From Escherichia phage AnnaHegner_Bas87: 64,000 bases of DNA. Positions 1,608 through 8,477 of the stretch are shown piece after piece; positions within the stretch are counted from its first letter, which is position 1; every line of letters begins with the position of its first letter. A program made the translations under genes and the position numbers. The notes below the pieces were generated by a model that did no database searches, was not told where the DNA came from, and saw only the letters and a list, made by a program, of their open reading frames with translations. The stretch lies in the sequence record PQ850594.1; one strand, 5' to 3'.

Positions 1608-3851
1608 ATGGCTAAGAAGAAATTTAGTGAAGATGTTTTGGATGAATTACGCGTTGACCTTCAACGTCGATTCAATTATGCTCAAGGCTATGTAGACTTA
1701 GCTGTAAAAGGCTATGCTCGTGAGGCTTGGGAATACTTCTATGGGAACCTTCCTGCTCCAGTTACTGCTGGTAGTTCTAGTTGGGTAGACCGTACAGTAT
1801 GGGAATCAGTGAATGGTACGCTCCAAGATATCATTAACGTGTTCTGTTCTGGTGACGAAGCGGTAACTTTCGTAGCCGATAACCAAGAAGATAGTGATGC
1901 TGCTGACGTAGCCACTAAACTTGTCAACCAAATTCTGTTACGTGATAATCCGGGATACAATATTATCTCTTCAGCGGCACAAGAGTGTCTGGTTACACGT
2001 AACTCTTTTATTAAATATTATTGGGATGAACAAACTTCTACCCAAACAGAAGAAGCAGAGGGTGTTCCTCCGGAAGCTTTGGCTGCATATGTCCAAGGTT
2101 TAGAAGCTGGTGGGCTTCAAGATTTAGAAATCTTTACCACTGACAACGAAGATGGTACAGTGGATGTTAAAGTAACTTACAAACAAACAGTAAAACGCGT
2201 TAAAGTAGAATATGTTCCTTCAGAACAGATTTTTGTTGACGAACATGCTACCTCTTTTGCAGATGCTCAGTATTTCTGTCATCGCACACGTAAATCTAAA
2301 GAAGATCTGGTTGCTATGGGCTTCCCTAAAGATGAAATTGAAGCTTTTAATGACTGGACTGATACAATGGACACTACTCAATCTACTGTTGCATGGTCAC
2401 GTACTGACTGGAGACAGGATACAGATGCTGATATTGGTGTTGACACTGAAGATATCGCAAGTATGGTATGGGTTTACGAGCATTACATTCGTACTGGTAC
2501 GCTCGATAAGAACAAAGAGTCAAAACTCTACCAAGTTATTCAAGCAGGCGAGCATATTCTCTCTTGTGAAGAAGTAACTAGCATTCCTTTTGTAACATTC
2601 TGCCCTTATCCTATTCCGGGTTCATTCTATGGACAGTCGGTTTATGATATTACTAAAGATATTCAGGATTTGCGTACCGCTTTGGTTCGTGGTTATATCG
2701 ATAACGTAAACAATGCTAACTATGGTCGATATAAGGCGCTTGTAGGCGCGTATGACCGTCGTTCTTTGCTAGACAACCGTCCGGGCGGTGTAGTAGAAAT
2801 GGAGCGTCAGGATGCGATTGATCTCTTCCCATACCATAATCTACCTCAAGGTATCGATGGCTTGCTGGGAATGTCTGATGAGTTGAAAGAAACTCGTACT
2901 GGTGTTACTAAACTCGGTATGGGTATTAACCCTGATGTGTTTAAGAATGATAACGCATATGCAACTGTTGGATTGATGATGAATGCTGCTCAGAACCGTC
3001 TCCGTATGGTCTGTCGTAACATTGCTCACAACGGTATGGTTGAATTGATGCGTGGTATTTATAATTTAGTCCGAGAAAATGGTGAGGTTCCTTTACAAGT
3101 ACAAACCCCTCGTGGTATGGTTCAGGTTCATCCTAAACAACTGCCTGCTCGTCACAATCTACAAGTTGTTGTAGCTATCTCTCCTAGCGAGAAATCAGAA
3201 CGTGCCCAGAAACTAATCAGCCTGAAGCAATTGATTGCTGCTGATGCTCAGTTAGCACCTCTGTTTACTCTGGAGCAAGATCGTTACATGACTGCACAGA
3301 TCTTCGAGTTGATGGGAATTAAAGATACTCACAAATACTTAATGCCTCTGGAACAATATCAACCGCCAGAACCTTCTCCGATGGAAATCCTCCAGCTTGA
3401 GATGACTAAAGCACAGGTTGAGAACGTACAGGCTTCTTCTCAGAAGATGATTGCTGATGCATTCGACCAGCGTGAACGCACTACGTTTGAACAGCAGAAA
3501 GCTGCGGACGAGTTCAGCTTACGTCAAGAAGAACTGCAATTTAAGCAAGAGAATGCTGCTGATCAGATGACTTTGGAGAATCGTAAAGAAGACAACAGTG
3601 CTACACTTGAACAGGCTAAGCACAAGTTGGCTCTGCTCCAGCAACAGGTCCGTCAGTATGAATCTGTACTTAAAGAATTGCAGATGACTCTTAATCATCA
3701 GGTCGATGTTGAGAAAGTTGCAAATCAGGCTAAAATTCAAGATAAGACTTTGGAACTCCAAAAGAAAGAAGCAAATGAAACTAAGAAAGAACAGCAAAGT
3801 TCAATCAAAGATTCACGGATTCCTAACCGTCGTCTTGGTAGTAGAAAATAA
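1608..3851 (+). CDS. portal protein (probable)
   Basis: 747-aa ORF directly after terminase with strong RBS (GAGGGAGAG); coiled-coil C-terminal region; position and size typical of portal. Confidence 0.6.
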   Translation: MAKKKFSEDVLDELRVDLQRRFNYAQGYVDLAVKGYAREAWEYFYGNLPAPVTAGSSSWVDRTVWESVNGTLQDIINVFCSGDEAVTFVADNQEDSDAADVATKLVNQILLRDNPGYNIISSAAQECLVTRNSFIKYYWDEQTSTQTEEAEGVPPEALAAYVQGLEAGGLQDLEIFTTDNEDGTVDVKVTYKQTVKRVKVEYVPSEQIFVDEHATSFADAQYFCHRTRKSKEDLVAMGFPKDEIEAFNDWTDTMDTTQSTVAWSRTDWRQDTDADIGVDTEDIASMVWVYEHYIRTGTLDKNKESKLYQVIQAGEHILSCEEVTSIPFVTFCPYPIPGSFYGQSVYDITKDIQDLRTALVRGYIDNVNNANYGRYKALVGAYDRRSLLDNRPGGVVEMERQDAIDLFPYHNLPQGIDGLLGMSDELKETRTGVTKLGMGINPDVFKNDNAYATVGLMMNAAQNRLRMVCRNIAHNGMVELMRGIYNLVRENGEVPLQVQTPRGMVQVHPKQLPARHNLQVVVAISPSEKSERAQKLISLKQLIAADAQLAPLFTLEQDRYMTAQIFELMGIKDTHKYLMPLEQYQPPEPSPMEILQLEMTKAQVENVQASSQKMIADAFDQRERTTFEQQKAADEFSLRQEELQFKQENAADQMTLENRKEDNSATLEQAKHKLALLQQQVRQYESVLKELQMTLNHQVDVEKVANQAKIQDKTLELQKKEANETKKEQQSSIKDSRIPNRRLGSRK

Positions 3852-3860
3852 GGATACTGA

Positions 3861-4097
3861 ATGAATACAAGACAGCAATTCAATAAAGAGCACGCCGCCG
3901 CTTTGGCGGCTCTCAATCACAACGGCATTCTTGACGCAGCATTAGAGGCATTAAAAGAAACCCTCATGAGAGATATTGTATTAACCGAGGCTCATGAGAA
4001 TAAGAAACGCGAAGAGTGTTATCAAAAGTATAAAATGGTTGGTAGCTTAAAAGAGGTCATAAAAGCTGCTATCAATAATGCAGGAGATATTTCCTAA
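3861..4097 (+). CDS. hypothetical small protein
   Basis: 78-aa ORF with RBS, abuts next gene (ATG overlaps stop). Confidence 0.4.
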   Translation: MNTRQQFNKEHAAALAALNHNGILDAALEALKETLMRDIVLTEAHENKKREECYQKYKMVGSLKEVIKAAINNAGDIS

Positions 4098-5179
4098 TGG
4101 CAAATGATTATATTGACCCGAACGATTTTAAATCTTTCCTCCAACTAGACGACTTAAAAGGCTCCTTTAAAGAAGAGCTTAGTCAATTAGAATCAGAACG
4201 TGAACCAGAAGTGAACATTGATGATGAATTCCCAGAACAGTCTGAGACTTTTGATCTTGATGCTTCCGACCTTCTCGGTGATGACGATACGTTAGCGTTC
4301 GAAGATGAAGATGGTTGGGAAGATCGTGAAGAGGAAGGCGAAGAAGAAGAGGAAGAGTCTGAGTTCTCTGATGAAGACGATGAAGAAGATGATTCCGGTG
4401 AAGCAGATCACGATGAAGCTGCTAACAGTGATGAAGATGGCGAAGAAGGTGAAGTCTTTGACGTAGATTATGAAACTGTTATCACCCTTCCTGATGGTCG
4501 TGAGATGACTATTGAAGAGTTGTCTAATGGCTATTTGACTGGTGCAGAAATGTCCGAACGTGAGACTACTTTGCAGCGTCATGTTGAAGCTTTTGAAGAA
4601 CGTGTTTCTGGCTTGGGTGATGTATTAGAACTAGCTGCCCTAGAAGCAGACCGAGTAATTGAAGATTACAACGGTTTTGATTGGGACAAACTCGCACAAG
4701 AAGATCCTCAAGCTTATGTAGAAAATAAACGTTTCTTAGAAAAATATACAGCTCGTCGCCAACAGCTTGAACAAGCTCAGCTTAAAATCAAGCAAGAAGC
4801 ACTAGCAAAAGAACAACAGCTCTTCCAAGCTAAATGTACTGAGTGTGTAAGCGTACTTAAACGTGAGATTCCTAATTGGGATGACAACTTGTATCAGAAC
4901 CTGATGCAGTATGCAATCGACTTAGGTGCTACAGAAGAAGAAGTGCTGAAAGAGAACCGTCCGTCAATCTTCCTAGCTCTACACAAAGCATACCAGTTTG
5001 ATAAAGGTAAGCAGCAGGTGATGGCTAAGATTAAACGTCCCGGCTCTCCACGCAAGGTTGTGAAGTCCGATGCTTCTAAGTCTCGTTCTTCCAATACGCC
5101 AGACAACGCTAAGGTTGCCAAGGCATTCTCAGAGGGTCGTATTCGTCACGAAGACGCATTTAAGTATCTCGTAGATTAA
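4097..5179 (+). CDS. scaffolding protein (probable)
   Basis: 360-aa highly acidic (E/D runs), helical/coiled-coil protein between portal and major capsid. Confidence 0.55.
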   Translation: MANDYIDPNDFKSFLQLDDLKGSFKEELSQLESEREPEVNIDDEFPEQSETFDLDASDLLGDDDTLAFEDEDGWEDREEEGEEEEEESEFSDEDDEEDDSGEADHDEAANSDEDGEEGEVFDVDYETVITLPDGREMTIEELSNGYLTGAEMSERETTLQRHVEAFEERVSGLGDVLELAALEADRVIEDYNGFDWDKLAQEDPQAYVENKRFLEKYTARRQQLEQAQLKIKQEALAKEQQLFQAKCTECVSVLKREIPNWDDNLYQNLMQYAIDLGATEEEVLKENRPSIFLALHKAYQFDKGKQQVMAKIKRPGSPRKVVKSDASKSRSSNTPDNAKVAKAFSEGRIRHEDAFKYLVD

Positions 5180-5219
5180 TCGACAAATTTATTTTTAATA
5201 GTATAGGAGCTAATATAAC

Positions 5220-6275
5220 ATGGCAAATCCAACTTTATTTGTATCTTACGACCAGAATGGTAAAAAACTTTCTTTTGCTAACTGGATTTCTGTCCTGTCT
5301 CCGCAAGACACTCCGTTTGTGTCTATGACTGGTAAAGAGTCTATCAATCAGACTATTTTCAGCTGGCAGACCGATGCTCTGGCGAGCGTAGATGCTAACA
5401 ACGCCCACGTCGAAGGCTCTCGTGCTGAAGATGGCGAAATGAAACCGACTGTAATCAAGTCCAACGTTACCCAAATTCTGCGTAAAGTTGTTCGTGTTTC
5501 TGATACTGCTAACACCACCGCTAACTACGGTCGTGGTCGTGAACTGATGTATCAGCTGGAGAAGAAAGGTAAAGAGATTAAACGTGACCTCGAGAAAATC
5601 TTGCTGTCCGGTCAGGCTCGTACCGATATTCTGGCAGACCAGTATCTGACCAACTCTGCAACTGATCCTGCTGTTGTAGGTCAGAATGATACCTCAGCTG
5701 CTCGTAAGACTGGTGCTTTCCAGTTCCTGTGTGCACACAATGGTGTTACTGGTGGTGTTGTTAAGAAAGAAGATGGTCCTGCTGACCCGGATACTGGTGC
5801 AGTAACTGTTAAAGTTGCACAGAATGCTTCTAACCCGACTACGAACATCGGTTTTGATGAAGCTGATATCTTTGATATGACTCTGCAACTGTATACCGCC
5901 GGTTCTGAAGCAGACATCATCATGATTAACCCTGCTCACGCTAGCATCTTTGCTAAGCTTCAGGAAAACTCTGTTGGTTCTCGTCAGCGTATCTTTGAGA
6001 ACACCAAACAGTTCATCTATGAAGTTAACAGCATCACTGACCCGCTGGGTCAGAGCTATAAAATCATCGTTAACCGTTGGATGCCTGCTGATGCAGTTTA
6101 CTTCTTCCGCAGCTCTGACTGGACTCAGATGGTTCTTCGTGCTCCGAAACGTACTGAACTGGCGAAAGATGGTTCTTACGAGAAATGGATGATCGAAATG
6201 GAAGTTGGTCTGCGTCACCGCAACCCATATGCTTCTGGTGTACTGTTCACCGCTGCGGGAAAGGTGGAGGCGTAA
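5220..6275 (+). CDS. major capsid protein (0-frame product)
   Basis: 351-aa ORF after scaffold with strong RBS; followed in -1 frame by an Ig-like extension. Confidence 0.7.
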   Translation: MANPTLFVSYDQNGKKLSFANWISVLSPQDTPFVSMTGKESINQTIFSWQTDALASVDANNAHVEGSRAEDGEMKPTVIKSNVTQILRKVVRVSDTANTTANYGRGRELMYQLEKKGKEIKRDLEKILLSGQARTDILADQYLTNSATDPAVVGQNDTSAARKTGAFQFLCAHNGVTGGVVKKEDGPADPDTGAVTVKVAQNASNPTTNIGFDEADIFDMTLQLYTAGSEADIIMINPAHASIFAKLQENSVGSRQRIFENTKQFIYEVNSITDPLGQSYKIIVNRWMPADAVYFFRSSDWTQMVLRAPKRTELAKDGSYEKWMIEMEVGLRHRNPYASGVLFTAAGKVEA

Positions 6276-6296
6276 CAGTTGACAGCGTAACTGTTA
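6257..6296 (+). promoter_or_regulatory. -1 programmed ribosomal frameshift signal: slippery heptamer G_GGA_AAG plus 9-nt spacer plus 8-bp stem-loop
   Basis: GGGAAAG at 6257-6263 in capsid 0-frame 10 nt before its TAA; perfect hairpin TAACAGTT (6273-6280) / AACTGTTA (6289-6296); -1 frame stays open to 7630. Confidence 0.6.
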
Positions 6297-7630
6297 GTCC
6301 CGCGTCAGTGGCTATTCTGCTGACCGGGGCTACCCAACAGTTTACAGCTGAAGCAGAACTAAGCGATGGCTCCACATCTACTACAGGCTTCGATTGGTCA
6401 GTAGCCGGTGGTGGGGCCATTTCTGTTTCTGGACTGTTCACTGCTCCGGGTTCGCCTCAAACCGCTGATATTGCAGTGACTGCTACTCTTAAAGGTGTAT
6501 CAGGTACTGCCGTTATCTCGGAAATTAAAGCTCCAATCCCTGACCCAGCTTCCATTGCCGTGACTGGTGGTGGTCTGACTGGTGACACTCTTACCTTAAC
6601 TGTTCCAGATGCTACCAACCTGACTGCTTCTGTATCTCCTGCTGGTGCACCTCAAGGCGTTACTTGGGAAATTGCAGATCAGACTAAGGCTACGGTAACA
6701 ACTGCTGGTCGTGTAACTGCTGTTGAAGCGGGCACTACTACTCTTACAGTTAAATCTTCTACTAAACCTTCTGTCACTAAAGTAATTAACCTTGTTGTTA
6801 ACCCCCAGCCTCCGACTATCGTAGCTAAAGCTGCTATTACTGGAAAATCTGGTGGAGATACCGTTGCTTTTACAGACATGTTTACCGTCCAACGCTCGGC
6901 TGCTAGTGATTATACTTTTGTAGTTACTCCAACTGCTGCTGGTACCGTGAATGCGTCCGGTCAGCTCTCTTTAGCTAGTACCGCTAGTGGTAACGTAACT
7001 GTTAAAGCTACTCACAAGACAGAAACATCTGTTACTGCAACTGCTAATATTAATGGTGTAACCCCTCTCCCAACGATTGAAGCGAAAGCTCCTATCACTG
7101 GTAAAGTAGGTGGTTCTACCACTGCATTCACCACCATGTTTACAGCAACCAATTCAGCTGCGTCTGACTACAATTTCGTAGTAACTCCAACTGAAGCAGG
7201 TACTGTAAGTGCTGCTGGTCTTCTGACCTTAGCTGACAGTGCTAGTGGAGATGTTACAGTAAAAGCTACTCATAAAACCCAGACTTCAGTAACTGCAACT
7301 TCTACCATAGAAGACGTAATACCTAAACTTACTGGTTTAGTTGTTTCAGCAGTGTCTGATGGGTCAGTAGCTGGTGATACTTTGACAATCTCAGACCCAA
7401 GCCAACCGGGAGTTTTTAACATAGCTTCTGTTCCTCAAGGTGCTCCACTAGGAACTATCGTATATGATGTAGAAGGCACAGATGCAGACAAATTGAGTAT
7501 TACCATTTCTGGTGATGCTTTAACAATTACGCTCTCTGGTGCTATCGCTAGTGAAGATACTAAAGTAACCCTGAGAACTGACCCAGGTTCTACAGTGTTC
7601 AAAACCTACACCGTTAAATCTGGTGCTTAA
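6257..7630 (+). CDS. -1 frame C-terminal extension of major capsid protein with Ig-like (Big_2-type) domains
   Basis: open -1 frame from slippery site; Big_2-like sequence (VTVSPASVAILLTGATQQF...) and internal repeats; no independent RBS at the in-frame Met 6185. Confidence 0.55.
   Translation, partial: GKGGGVTVDSVTVSPASVAILLTGATQQFTAEAELSDGSTSTTGFDWSVAGGGAISVSGLFTAPGSPQTADIAVTATLKGVSGTAVISEIKAPIPDPASIAVTGGGLTGDTLTLTVPDATNLTASVSPAGAPQGVTWEIADQTKATVTTAGRVTAVEAGTTTLTVKSSTKPSVTKVINLVVNPQPPTIVAKAAITGKSGGDTVAFTDMFTVQRSAASDYTFVVTPTAAGTVNASGQLSLASTASGNVTVKATHKTETSVTATANINGVTPLPTIEAKAPITGKVGGSTTAFTTMFTATNSAASDYNFVVTPTEAGTVSAAGLLTLADSASGDVTVKATHKTQTSVTATSTIEDVIPKLTGLVVSAVSDGSVAGDTLTISDPSQPGVFNIASVPQGAPLGTIVYDVEGTDADKLSITISGDALTITLSGAIASEDTKVTLRTDPGSTVFKTYTVKSGA
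6812..7327 (+). repeat. tandem duplication, 2 x 258 bp (86-aa units) within capsid Ig-like extension
   Basis: units starting PTIVAKAAITGKSGGDTVAFTDMFT... and PTIEAKAPITGKVGGSTTAFTTMFT... are clearly homologous. Confidence 0.6.
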
Positions 7631-7635
7631 AACTA

Positions 7636-7665
7636 AGGCTGCCTTCGGGTGGCCTTTTCTCATTT
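7636..7665 (+). terminator. rho-independent terminator after capsid gene
   Basis: hairpin AGGCTGCC-TTCG-GGTGGCCT followed by TTTCTCATTTT. Confidence 0.45.
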
Positions 7666-7688
7666 TAAGACCCTTATAAGGAGATATG

Positions 7689-7730: not shown

Positions 7731-8477
7731 ATGGCAATGCCTGACGTTCAATATCCCATCAATACCTACGGATGGCTCAAGAAAGCTGTGTCCCTCTGGG
7801 CTGACAGGGATGATGATGAATTTGTTAATCAGATTCCAAACTTTATTAACTTTGCAGAGAAAGAAATCTATCGTAACTTACGAATTCCTCCTCTGGAAAA
7901 AGAAGTATATTTAGATATTAAAGATGGTGTGGCTTTTATTCCACCAGACTACTTAGAAGCTCAGTGGATGATGAGAGCAAGTAATGGACATATGTTCCGA
8001 GTAACTTCTCCAGAAGAGTTAGATTGGCTGAAAAGAAATAACTCAGTAAACCCAACTAACTGGAATCAGGGAGAAGTGAGTTTTACTAGGTTGGGAAGTC
8101 GGTTCCTGTTCTACCCAGCCATCAACGCTGATACTCCGGTCTACCCTGATGATGGAAGCCCTCTTATTCCAGCGGAGAATTCGGTAATTCTTAGCTATTA
8201 TGCAGACCCTCCGGAGTTTCATGAGGATTCTGATACAAGTGCAATTTTAACAATAGCTCCAGAGCTTCTTCTATATTTCACATTACGTCATGCAAGCTTA
8301 TTTGTCCAAGATGATAATGGGGTTCAGAAGTGGTCTGCTTTAGGGAAAGCTATTCTAGATGAGGTAGTTGAGCAGAGTAAGAAAGCTGAATACTCAGGCT
8401 CTCCTCTAGTTATTCCTAGAACTATTGACCGTCTTCACAGCTCTCGTGAGTTGTATGGAATCAAACACTACAGTTAA
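7731..8477 (+). CDS. hypothetical virion structural protein
   Basis: 248-aa ORF with AGGAGG RBS in structural block. Confidence 0.5.
   Translation: MAMPDVQYPINTYGWLKKAVSLWADRDDDEFVNQIPNFINFAEKEIYRNLRIPPLEKEVYLDIKDGVAFIPPDYLEAQWMMRASNGHMFRVTSPEELDWLKRNNSVNPTNWNQGEVSFTRLGSRFLFYPAINADTPVYPDDGSPLIPAENSVILSYYADPPEFHEDSDTSAILTIAPELLLYFTLRHASLFVQDDNGVQKWSALGKAILDEVVEQSKKAEYSGSPLVIPRTIDRLHSSRELYGIKHYS

Follow-up and report, generated by a model that had tools for sequence, protein, structure and literature searches.

The stretch of DNA considered here (the window; 64,000 nt of Escherichia phage AnnaHegner_Bas87, PQ850594.1) carries a major capsid protein gene and, overlapping its 3' end in the -1 frame, a long second reading frame for Ig-like domains. 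The features from which our argument starts are these:

5205-5209, plus strand: Shine-Dalgarno sequence of the major capsid gene (AGGAG), 10 nt upstream of the ATG
5220-6275, plus strand: major capsid protein gene of the SU10_MCP family (PF17236), with a zero-frame product of 351 aa (38.7 kDa)
6257-6263, plus strand: slippery heptamer G_GGA_AAG in X_XXY_YYZ register, 5 codons short of the zero-frame end
6257-7630, plus strand: -1 frame ORF, 457 codons plus stop
6273-6275, plus strand: TAA stop of the capsid gene, zero frame
7635-7666, plus strand: intrinsic terminator-like hairpin with a T-run, immediately 3' of the extension stop

The capsid product matches PF17236 in Pfam at E = 3e-79 and SU10 gp9 (PDB 7z45) at E = 6e-221, and it is 92-99.7% identical to the major capsid proteins (MCPs) of members of the phiEco32/SU10 group. 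The local gene order—portal, small ORF, scaffold, capsid, Ig ORF, terminator, adaptor (an SU10_adaptor match in Pfam at 7731-8477) and tail fibre—also matches that of the phiEco32-type group. There is no terminator between the capsid stop and the extension, and in SU10 a terminator is annotated at the place equivalent to that of ours, after the extension region. A promoter scan of the capsid-to-extension interval returned matches at chance level only, and ARAGORN found no tRNA or tmRNA.

How might a ribosome that has begun on the capsid gene come to read the second frame? A preliminary description of this locus answered with a programmed -1 frameshift that fuses the capsid protein to the Ig-like extension, and our analysis supports that proposal, for which all of the sequence-level predictions hold. 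The final capsid codons are GCG GGA AAG GTG GAG GCG TAA, and the heptamer does lie near the capsid stop, as described, with 9 nt (6264-6272) between it and the TAA. The -1 frame had been said to continue open to 7630, and it is indeed open from 6158 through the stop at 7628-7630; within the 38-codon overlap of the two frames (6158-6272), the heptamer at 6257-6263 is the only canonical one. Both the heptamer and its position are invariant, wobble bases included, in 21 distinct relatives, and the wobble bases that flank it vary. The Proteus phage Privateer, with an MCP that is just 58% identical, also carries a GGGAAAG heptamer. Within the window, GGGAAAG occurs no more often than expected (6 copies vs. 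7.0 expected); the weight of the heptamer comes from its frame, position and conservation. Another copy of the motif, at 8343, was set aside: it starts on the first codon position of the adaptor gene and is thus out of register. Rfam, applied at its gathering thresholds to the whole window, found no family; in other words, no catalogued frameshift element is present there.

If the fusion is read as 5220-6263 and then 6263-7627, its predicted length is 803 aa and its predicted mass 83.1 kDa, so that the earlier estimates (an extension of ~450 aa and a capsid-related species of ~85 kDa) can be corrected to 455 residues after K348 and 83.1 kDa. The predicted junction is NPYASGVLFTAAGK, then GGGVTVDS, and a trypsin site after K348 falls exactly there. 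Beyond the junction, the extension divides into a linker and five modules:

6263-6271, plus strand: Gly-Gly-Gly linker in the -1 frame (GGT GGA GGC); in relatives, Gly/Ser with a 3-nt in-frame indel
6272-6538, plus strand: module D1, Big_2, 24.3 bits
6539-6805, plus strand: module D2, Big_2, 38.5 bits
6806-7063, plus strand: module D3, copy 1 of an 86-aa repeat; Big_2 at 16.2 bits, below threshold; a beta-sandwich in AlphaFold2 with pLDDT >90
7064-7321, plus strand: module D4, copy 2 of the 86-aa repeat; Big_2 at 21.4 bits, below threshold; 60 of 86 aa identical to D3
7322-7627, plus strand: module D5, C-terminal, 102 aa, all-beta; no Pfam family, and present in only some relatives

The extension matches Big_2 (PF02368) at E = 6.4e-15. 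When the Pfam gathering threshold of 22.8 bits is applied module by module, the claim that the extension encodes Big_2-like Ig domains stands for D1 and D2; D3 and D4 fall under the threshold, and D5 is unmatched. The internal 86-aa tandem duplication, also noticed earlier, is real: 6806-7063 and 7064-7321 share 172 of 258 nt as well as the 60 of 86 aa. AlphaFold2 models the whole extension as five beta-sandwich domains (pLDDT 82), and Foldseek, given the five-domain model, returned generic tandem Ig, cadherin and S-layer arrays at low TM-scores, matches from which no specific functional homologue of the extension can be named. To our knowledge, there is no structure of the displayed Ig array for any member of the group.

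Downstream of the slip site, there is more RNA structure than the preliminary description had recognized:

6273-6296, plus strand: hairpin H1, with arms 6273-6280 and 6289-6296, -6.8 kcal/mol
6295-6332, plus strand: hairpin H2, 16 bp with one bulge, -24 kcal/mol, adjoining H1 and previously overlooked
6337-6345, plus strand: alternative partner segment, which pairs with 6287-6294 instead of the H1 5' arm and lengthens H2

The perfect 8-bp hairpin that had been described, TAACAGTT (6273-6280) with AACTGTTA (6289-6296), set 9 nt beyond the heptamer and closed by an 8-nt loop, is present but weak alone at -6.8 kcal/mol. Its 7-bp core is invariant in 16 sequences, 4 wobble positions included, and the wobble positions in its loop vary; conservation does not extend to its top pair, 6280:6289, which is of standard type in 6 of the 16 (UA in 5, AU in 1) and unpaired in the other 10. 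H1 is the mere edge of a larger conserved structure with compensatory changes (6295-6332): among relatives, the H2 pair 6307:6321 is U-A, G-C or A-U, and the pair 6308:6320 is G-C or U-G. Across four sequence clades, standard pairs fill 91-95% of the cells for the downstream RNA, and the observed covariation score was reached by 0 of 500 shuffles; folding z-scores range from -2.1 to -2.9 in three of the four clades. Wobble conservation in the stems (p = 0.0026 vs. the rest of D1 and p = 0.11 vs. the capsid-gene background) is only suggestive as a sign of RNA structure.

The usual distance from a heptamer to its stimulator is 5-9 nt; H1 begins 9 nt from the heptamer, and H2 sits further, at 31 nt (20 nt in its extended form). 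The minimum-energy fold is a long hairpin, 6284-6349, at -35 kcal/mol. Three segments are invariant, which we call a (6273-6279), b (6290-6296) and c (6337-6343), and since a and c are alternative partners for b, the element may be two-state. We would entertain, tentatively, the idea that the downstream RNA is such a two-state structure and that it determines how many capsid subunits are decorated relative to plain ones. In Aeromonas-phage-like relatives, a small hairpin and then a large one follow a noncanonical G_GUA_AAG, and the sequence there is unrelated (z = -4.9). In the accessible literature, we came upon no account of a downstream element of this kind. Two other structures were considered and dropped: a pseudoknot or pairing of the linker (6263-6272) with a downstream CUACC, for which the changes between clades, compared by eye, are not compensatory, and the stem-loop across the slip site from the SU10 paper (CTGCTGCGGGAAAGGCGGCGG; PMC4281155), which a ribosome on the heptamer would have melted already.

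Might the Ig-like ORF rather be a separate gene, begun at GTG 6308, with a product that binds the capsid noncovalently as a decoration protein does? GenBank records of relatives do list a separate "Ig domain containing protein" (with the GTG 6308 start in Bas88 and EK010), the SU10 structure paper considers that gp10 may be a minor capsid protein in its own right, and a GTG is indeed present at 6308. That GTG, however, has no Shine-Dalgarno sequence, unlike all of the neighbouring genes (6 of 6), and the same is true of the other -1-frame candidates, GTG 6476, GTG 6560 and ATG 6185, the last of which had rightly been described as lacking a ribosome-binding site. Moreover, GTG 6308 is buried in the -24 kcal/mol stem of H2, other clades have GTT or TTA in its place, and the starts annotated in GenBank for the "Ig gene" vary from phage to phage. 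The Big_2 match begins at ~6278, and the first D1 strand is encoded upstream of GTG 6308, the earliest start codon that could serve; a start there would lose that strand together with the conserved Gly linker. Finally, a fused product is backed by mass spectrometry in relatives (PMC7881722, PMC4281155). We regard a separate gene as very unlikely.

Another way to obtain the long form without any ribosomal slip would be RNA polymerase slippage, or heterogeneity of the genome, at GGGAAAG. The short runs of G and A at the site lend themselves to such a reading, but three-base runs are far below the lengths known for transcriptional slippage, and the exact X_XXY_YYZ register that has been kept is relevant to tRNA re-pairing alone. 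The ribosomal frameshift of lambda G/GT also uses the identical heptamer (PMC9965538), and we think an RNA-level origin highly improbable. As for the -1 ORF being a decaying remnant, with a coincidental heptamer and no consequential extended protein, the chance-level frequency of GGGAAAG in the window and the viability of SU10 despite loss of the ORF speak for it, but the 457 codons open here and 180-547 in 20 other distinct relatives, the conserved modules with their confidently predicted folds, the group-wide invariance of the heptamer and the protein evidence in relatives (PMC7881722, PMC4281155) make it scarcely credible.

The capsid gene, then, very probably ends in the programmed -1 ribosomal frameshift described for the phiEco32/SU10 group (Gordonclarkvirinae), which would work as follows. 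The majority of ribosomes would continue through GGA-AAG-GUG-GAG-GCG-UAA and terminate there, with the 351-aa capsid protein as their product. In a minority, tRNA-Gly and tRNA-Lys would re-pair one base back, from G_GGA_AAG to GGG_AAA; these ribosomes would go on to translate the Gly3 linker and then the five Ig-like beta-sandwich modules, and an 803-aa minor capsid protein would result. The conserved downstream RNA (H1 and H2, or the extended stem) may tune the efficiency of the slip. The long form would co-assemble through its normal HK97-fold body, bearing a flexible array of ~45 kDa that we imagine to be directed outward; of the roughly 715 subunits in a head, it may make up a few percent, and the array might provide weak adhesion to cell-surface or environmental glycans.

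This capsid/Ig frameshift is already known. With the same GGGAAAG heptamer, it has been published for phiEco32, SU10, YF01 and Privateer, with mass-spectrometry support. Capsid forms of 38.5 and 55.4 kDa were reported for SU10, the long one in virions (PMC4281155), the frameshift of phiEco32 (Savalia 2008) and the presence of its long form in virions are cited in PMC7881722, and work on phage YF01, the long isoform of which has 892 aa, presents capsid frameshifting as common to the whole group (PMC9965538). SU10 itself calls for comment. Its cryo-EM preparation (in the structure paper) had no extra capsid density and no long band, and the absence of the long form has been put down to a -1 frame that stops prematurely in SU10 (PMC9965538); our alignment traces that stop to a 1-nt insertion, and the SU10 -1 ORF has 13 codons, vs. 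180-547 among the 21 distinct relatives.

Within the group, phiEco32 (gp11/gp12) has an orthologous capsid protein (MCPs here are 93-99% identical) and the identical heptamer in the same register, 5-6 codons before the stop; its -1 ORF, like those of the group, opens with a Gly linker and the D1 Big_2 module, in the order portal, scaffold, capsid, Ig, adaptor. It differs in cargo only: 180 codons (D1 and one repeat module) vs. 457 here (D1-D2-D3-D4-D5). D1 is common to all relatives, and the number of Ig modules ranges from 2 to 6. The backbone of our genome is closest to NC-B, Bas86 and SU7, and its Ig cargo is closest to EK010 and Bas88; the cargo has been exchanged among phages that are nearly identical in other respects.

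Outside the group, gene 10A/10B of T7, T3 and K1F resembles our locus in that a shift to the -1 frame late in the capsid gene leads to a C-terminally extended minor capsid protein. T7 slips at a different sequence and adds only ~50 aa; the likeness is one of mechanism, set beside our case as a functional analogue and not as signal homology. The extended form is ~10% in T7 and T3, as cited in PMC9965538. Lambda G/GT has the identical G_GGA_AAG in the same host and shifts at a rate of ~3.5% (PMC9965538), which means that this heptamer is able to shift in E. coli, although the gene is that of a tail assembly chaperone, not a capsid protein, and the products are unrelated. Privateer has an SU10_MCP-family capsid protein whose gene closes with the heptamer, followed by a -1 extension annotated as a joined CDS, and its long form was found in virions by mass spectrometry and as two gel bands (PMC7881722); it differs in that its heptamer abuts the stop, its extension is of other sequence and it belongs to the family Grimontviridae.

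A C-terminally extended capsid protein of the SU10_MCP family also occurs further afield, in Salmonella phage SE131, Cronobacter phage GAP52, Aeromonas phage APT65 and the metagenomic contig L038, but there the extended form is a second, full paralogous capsid gene, in frame and without a frameshift. The two capsid copies of L038 have diverged to 71% identity, and its extension has modules of the D3/D4 and D5 types; the SE131 extension includes Big_2, which among the extended paralogues of SE131, GAP52 and APT65 is demonstrated for SE131 only. Because SE131 and L038 have these in-frame MCP-Ig paralogues, we can say that the extension modules do work as C-terminal extensions of this capsid family. 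On a wider reading, frameshifting and capsid gene duplication would be two separate solutions that the SU10_MCP lineage has found to a single problem. T4 Hoc likewise equips a phage head with arrayed Ig-like domains, with the difference that Hoc is a separate protein on assembled capsids, whereas here the array would be a covalent part of the capsid subunit; weak adhesion is the role proposed for Ig arrays of the Hoc type (Fraser 2006, cited by way of PMC9965538).

What does all of this mean? For annotation, the long product should be a joined CDS (5220..6263, 6263..7630) for a minor capsid protein and not an "Ig domain containing protein" with an arbitrary start, and the error of annotating a separate gene extends to most of the GenBank relatives. 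For the phage group, we have added one further member with an Ig-like array on a subset of its capsid subunits, which is little beyond the literature. For those who would build with phages, the slip site is a ready-made place for low-copy display on the capsid, as in T7 and K1F. A cargo of 2-6 modules that is exchanged in this way would fit a role in adhesion or in interaction with the host environment, and module variation, conserved RNA and capsid duplication together make this lineage a natural system in which to ask why a minority of decorated subunits is advantageous.

The phage behind the window is a phiEco32/SU10-type prolate podophage of E. coli (Gordonclarkvirinae). Its closest records over the window's first 25 kb are NC-B, Bas86 and SU7 (96–97% identity), its late-gene order around the capsid gene is the group's standard one, and its capsid protein matches the solved SU10 gp9 (PDB 7z45) with E = 6e-221. 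The whole 64-kb window (1–64000) yielded no tRNA or tmRNA genes by ARAGORN and no Rfam family at gathering score, the RNA element discussed below included.

Genes and signals around the capsid gene
1608–3851, portal
between portal and scaffold, small ORF
4097–5179, scaffold
5220–6275, major capsid protein (PF17236 SU10_MCP, E = 3e-79)
between capsid gene and adaptor, −1-frame Ig-like ORF
7635–7656 plus T-run, terminator directly 3' of the extension, annotated likewise in SU10
7731–8477, adaptor (PF24175 SU10_adaptor)
3' of the adaptor, tail fibre

How, then, is the long Ig-like ORF behind the capsid gene translated: by ribosomes that slip into the −1 frame, or as a gene of its own? The capsid gene ends GCG GGA AAG GTG GAG GCG TAA, and within this end lies G_GGA_AAG (6257–6263), in X_XXY_YYZ register and 9 nt ahead of the TAA at 6273–6275. 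The −1 frame stays open between 6158 and 7630, the two open frames overlap over 38 codons only, and this heptamer is the one canonical slippery site in the overlap. After a slip the message would read GGG AAA GGT GGA GGC GTA ACA GTT... (G-K-G-G-G-V-T-V-D-S-V-T-V-S-P), giving a predicted fusion of 803 aa and 83.1 kDa; the unextended capsid protein has 351 aa and 38.7 kDa. The preliminary description had noted this heptamer and had the shifted frame open to 7630; both observations are confirmed, and its interpretation, a −1 frameshift, is supported, because the mechanism is published in relatives and the sequence evidence given here favours it. Over the window as a whole GGGAAAG is not above chance level (6 found vs 7.0 expected); a second plus-strand copy at 8343–8349, in the adaptor gene, starts at codon position 1, the wrong register for −1 slippage, and most likely arose by chance.

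The extension usually appears in group genomes as a gene apart, labelled "Ig domain containing protein" or "hypothetical protein," and the start of this "Ig gene" is inconsistent across GenBank records (L001, L003, L030, L031, L033–L036, L043), being a GTG 12 nt past the capsid stop, a GTG 33 nt past it or an ATG ~85 nt past it. Among the records examined, the only one to annotate the frameshift as a joined CDS is that of Proteus phage Privateer, where mass spectrometry verified it. In the window, none of the −1-frame starts (ATG 6185, GTG 6308, GTG 6476 and GTG 6560) is preceded by a Shine–Dalgarno sequence, and a match of 4–6 nt at 5–10 nt is found in all six neighbouring genes. At GTG 6308, the annotated start in Bas88 and EK010, other clades have GTT or TTA, and the codon sits within a strong RNA stem. 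Both the Big_2 match and the predicted first strand start at ~6278, ahead of any start codon, with a Gly/Ser linker before them in which relatives tolerate a 3-nt in-frame indel. No terminator was found in the window between the capsid stop and the extension; in two relatives with no extension at this place (L013, L038), a GC-rich inverted repeat and T-run, terminator-like to the eye, lie just 3' of the capsid stop. Finally, the heptamer is unchanged at the equivalent place in all 21 distinct sequences from 31 loci (phage records, IMG/VR and metagenomes) where adjacent wobble positions vary, the −1 ORF runs to 180–547 codons in every compared relative but SU10, and Privateer, with a capsid protein only 58% identical, ends its gene GAG GGA AAG TAA. 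We regard signal, register, conservation, missing independent start and transcription-unit layout as established at the level of sequence, and these, with the nonconserved annotated start and the domain boundary, point to a frameshift and not a separate gene, as the preliminary description had argued from the Met at 6185.

At the level of mechanism the novelty is nil, the frameshift being already known for the phage group. YF01 "and other group phages" make two capsid forms through a slippery GGGAAAG close to the capsid stop; Ig-like domains are added in the longer form, ~500–550 aa in most of the group, 892 aa in YF01 and 894 aa in Paul (PMC9965538). The SU10 slip site was identified "as in phage phiEco32," and mass spectrometry was reported to show its capsid protein in two forms, 38.5 and 55.4 kDa (PMC4281155), and an equivalent capsid frameshift was reported for Privateer in a paper that cites the SU10 and phiEco32 papers for observation of the product (PMC7881722). 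In the SU10 cryo-EM study extra capsid density was absent, and the missing long form has been put down to a premature −1-frame stop (PMC9965538). Unlike all other aligned sequences, SU10 (L002:4060–4075, KM044272) has a 1-nt insertion just 3' of the capsid stop (GTCTAC vs GT-GAC or GT-AAC in relatives) that brings a stop into the −1 frame after 13 codons, which would explain the cryo-EM result. The absence contrasts with the 55.4-kDa form of the 2014 study; the cause might be strain variation or an error in sequencing.

Modules of the −1-frame extension
6272–6538, D1, Big_2, 24.3 bits
6539–6805, D2, Big_2, 38.5 bits
6806–7063, D3, 86-aa repeat, Big_2 16.2 bits (subthreshold)
7064–7321, D4, 86-aa repeat, Big_2 21.4 bits (subthreshold)
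7322–7627, D5, without Pfam family

The Big_2-like domains proposed for this frame thus hold for D1 and D2, but not at threshold for D3 and D4, nor for D5; the proposed 86-aa tandem duplication stands, D3 and D4 sharing 60 of 86 residues and 172 of 258 nt. An AlphaFold2 model built with 24 homologues as input has five all-beta domains (mean pLDDT 82, above 90 in D3–D5). Because its only Foldseek matches are generic tandem arrays (Ig, cadherin and S-layer), the model makes the fold class evident and indicates no particular function. Module content varies: D1 plus one repeat in phiEco32, SU7 and NJ01 (180–182 aa), D1 plus two in NC-B (266 aa), D1-D2-D3-D5 in EK010 (372 aa), D1-D2-D3-D3-D4-D5 in Bas88 (543 aa) and D1 plus four repeats and D5 in the relative L017 (547 aa). 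The window's backbone is nearest NC-B, SU7 and Bas86, DNA similarity to them ends within D1 at ~6448–6510, and beyond it the nearest sequences are EK010, E20-1 and Bas88, so that this interval marks a recombination boundary. Given the module variation and the switch inside D1, the Ig cargo is a mosaic, expandable cassette.

What of the RNA beyond the slip site? The 8-bp hairpin described after a 9-nt spacer (H1, 6273–6280/6289–6296) is present as an inverted repeat, but alone it reaches just −6.8 kcal/mol and its eighth pair is not conserved. Directly 3' of it, and absent from the preliminary description, is the stronger stem–loop H2 (6295–6332, −24 kcal/mol). In an alignment of 16 distinct sequences representing four clades only, seven base pairs of H1 are invariant, 4/4 wobble positions included, and 4/4 wobble positions of its loop vary. 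In H2, pair 6307:6321 is U-A in seven sequences, G-C in five and A-U in four, changes at one partner being synonymous (a Ser wobble base) and those at the other altering the residue (L, Q, P or E); pair 6308:6320 is G-C or U-G. Standard pairs fill 91.5% of H1 and H2 cells vs 27–51% in slid controls, and the covariation score was reached by 0 of 500 shuffles; wobble conservation in the stems has p = 0.0026 vs the rest of D1 and a nonsignificant p = 0.11 vs the capsid gene. The 3' arm of H1 can pair instead with 6337–6345, making a single long hairpin; in three of the four clades this is the fold of lowest energy (−35 kcal/mol), and it fits the alignment slightly better (95.4% of cells paired, one more compensatory pair). 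The segments GUAACAGUU and GUAACUGUU (6272–6280 and 6287–6295) each encode V-T-V and are both a direct and an inverted repeat, with a third AACAGUU copy at 6337–6345 in a different codon register (Q-Q-F); among the three, two mutually exclusive pairings are possible. A conserved RNA structure is thus present here, and it may tune frameshifting. The strong stem begins 20–31 nt past the heptamer, beyond typical stimulator distance; since lambda G/GT shifts ~3.5% on the same heptamer (PMC9965538), a stimulator may not be essential.

More distant relatives take other routes. Three Aeromonas-phage-like contigs (L009–L011, 4900–5005) lack a canonical heptamer, end their capsid genes CUG AAG GUA AAG GCG UAA and continue into a −1 ORF of ~170 codons, Big_2-like at its start; a GC-rich hairpin 6 nt after AAG is followed by a long second one (z = −4.9), and A_AAG may be a noncanonical slip site. 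Another locus (L014, 4915–4935) has A_AAA_AAG three codons ahead of the stop and a −1 ORF of just 41 codons. SE131, GAP52, APT65 and L038 (Salmonella, Cronobacter and Aeromonas phages and a metagenomic contig; loci L038:996–3506, ENA ERZ28615730 scaffold_9219; L039:1485–4261, SE131; L040; L042) carry capsid paralogues in tandem, two to four of them, and the final copy has an in-frame C-terminal extension that includes Big_2 in SE131. Such natural in-frame fusions are shown by the genes themselves. The L038 extension consists of one D3/D4-type module and one of D5 type, with 58% identity to the window's; L038 is also the contig whose joint was examined, and it directly follows the conserved ...RHRNP(F/Y)ASGVL motif, the frameshift junction point in the window. 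Duplication of the capsid gene in these phages replaces frameshifting as the source of a decorated minor capsid subunit.

In the window's phage, the minority of ribosomes that slip, probably a few percent, would make the Ig-extended capsid protein, a long form reported in virions for relatives only. With 715 capsid subunits in the SU10 head (SU10 cryo-EM study) and slip rates of 3.5–10% in lambda and T7 (PMC9965538), tens of subunits per head might be decorated, their Ig arrays presumably displayed outward and perhaps serving in weak adhesion. What remains new is the RNA element after the slip site and the comparison of frameshift with paralogue. The distant SU10_MCP phages show that what is made counts for more than the route by which it is made.
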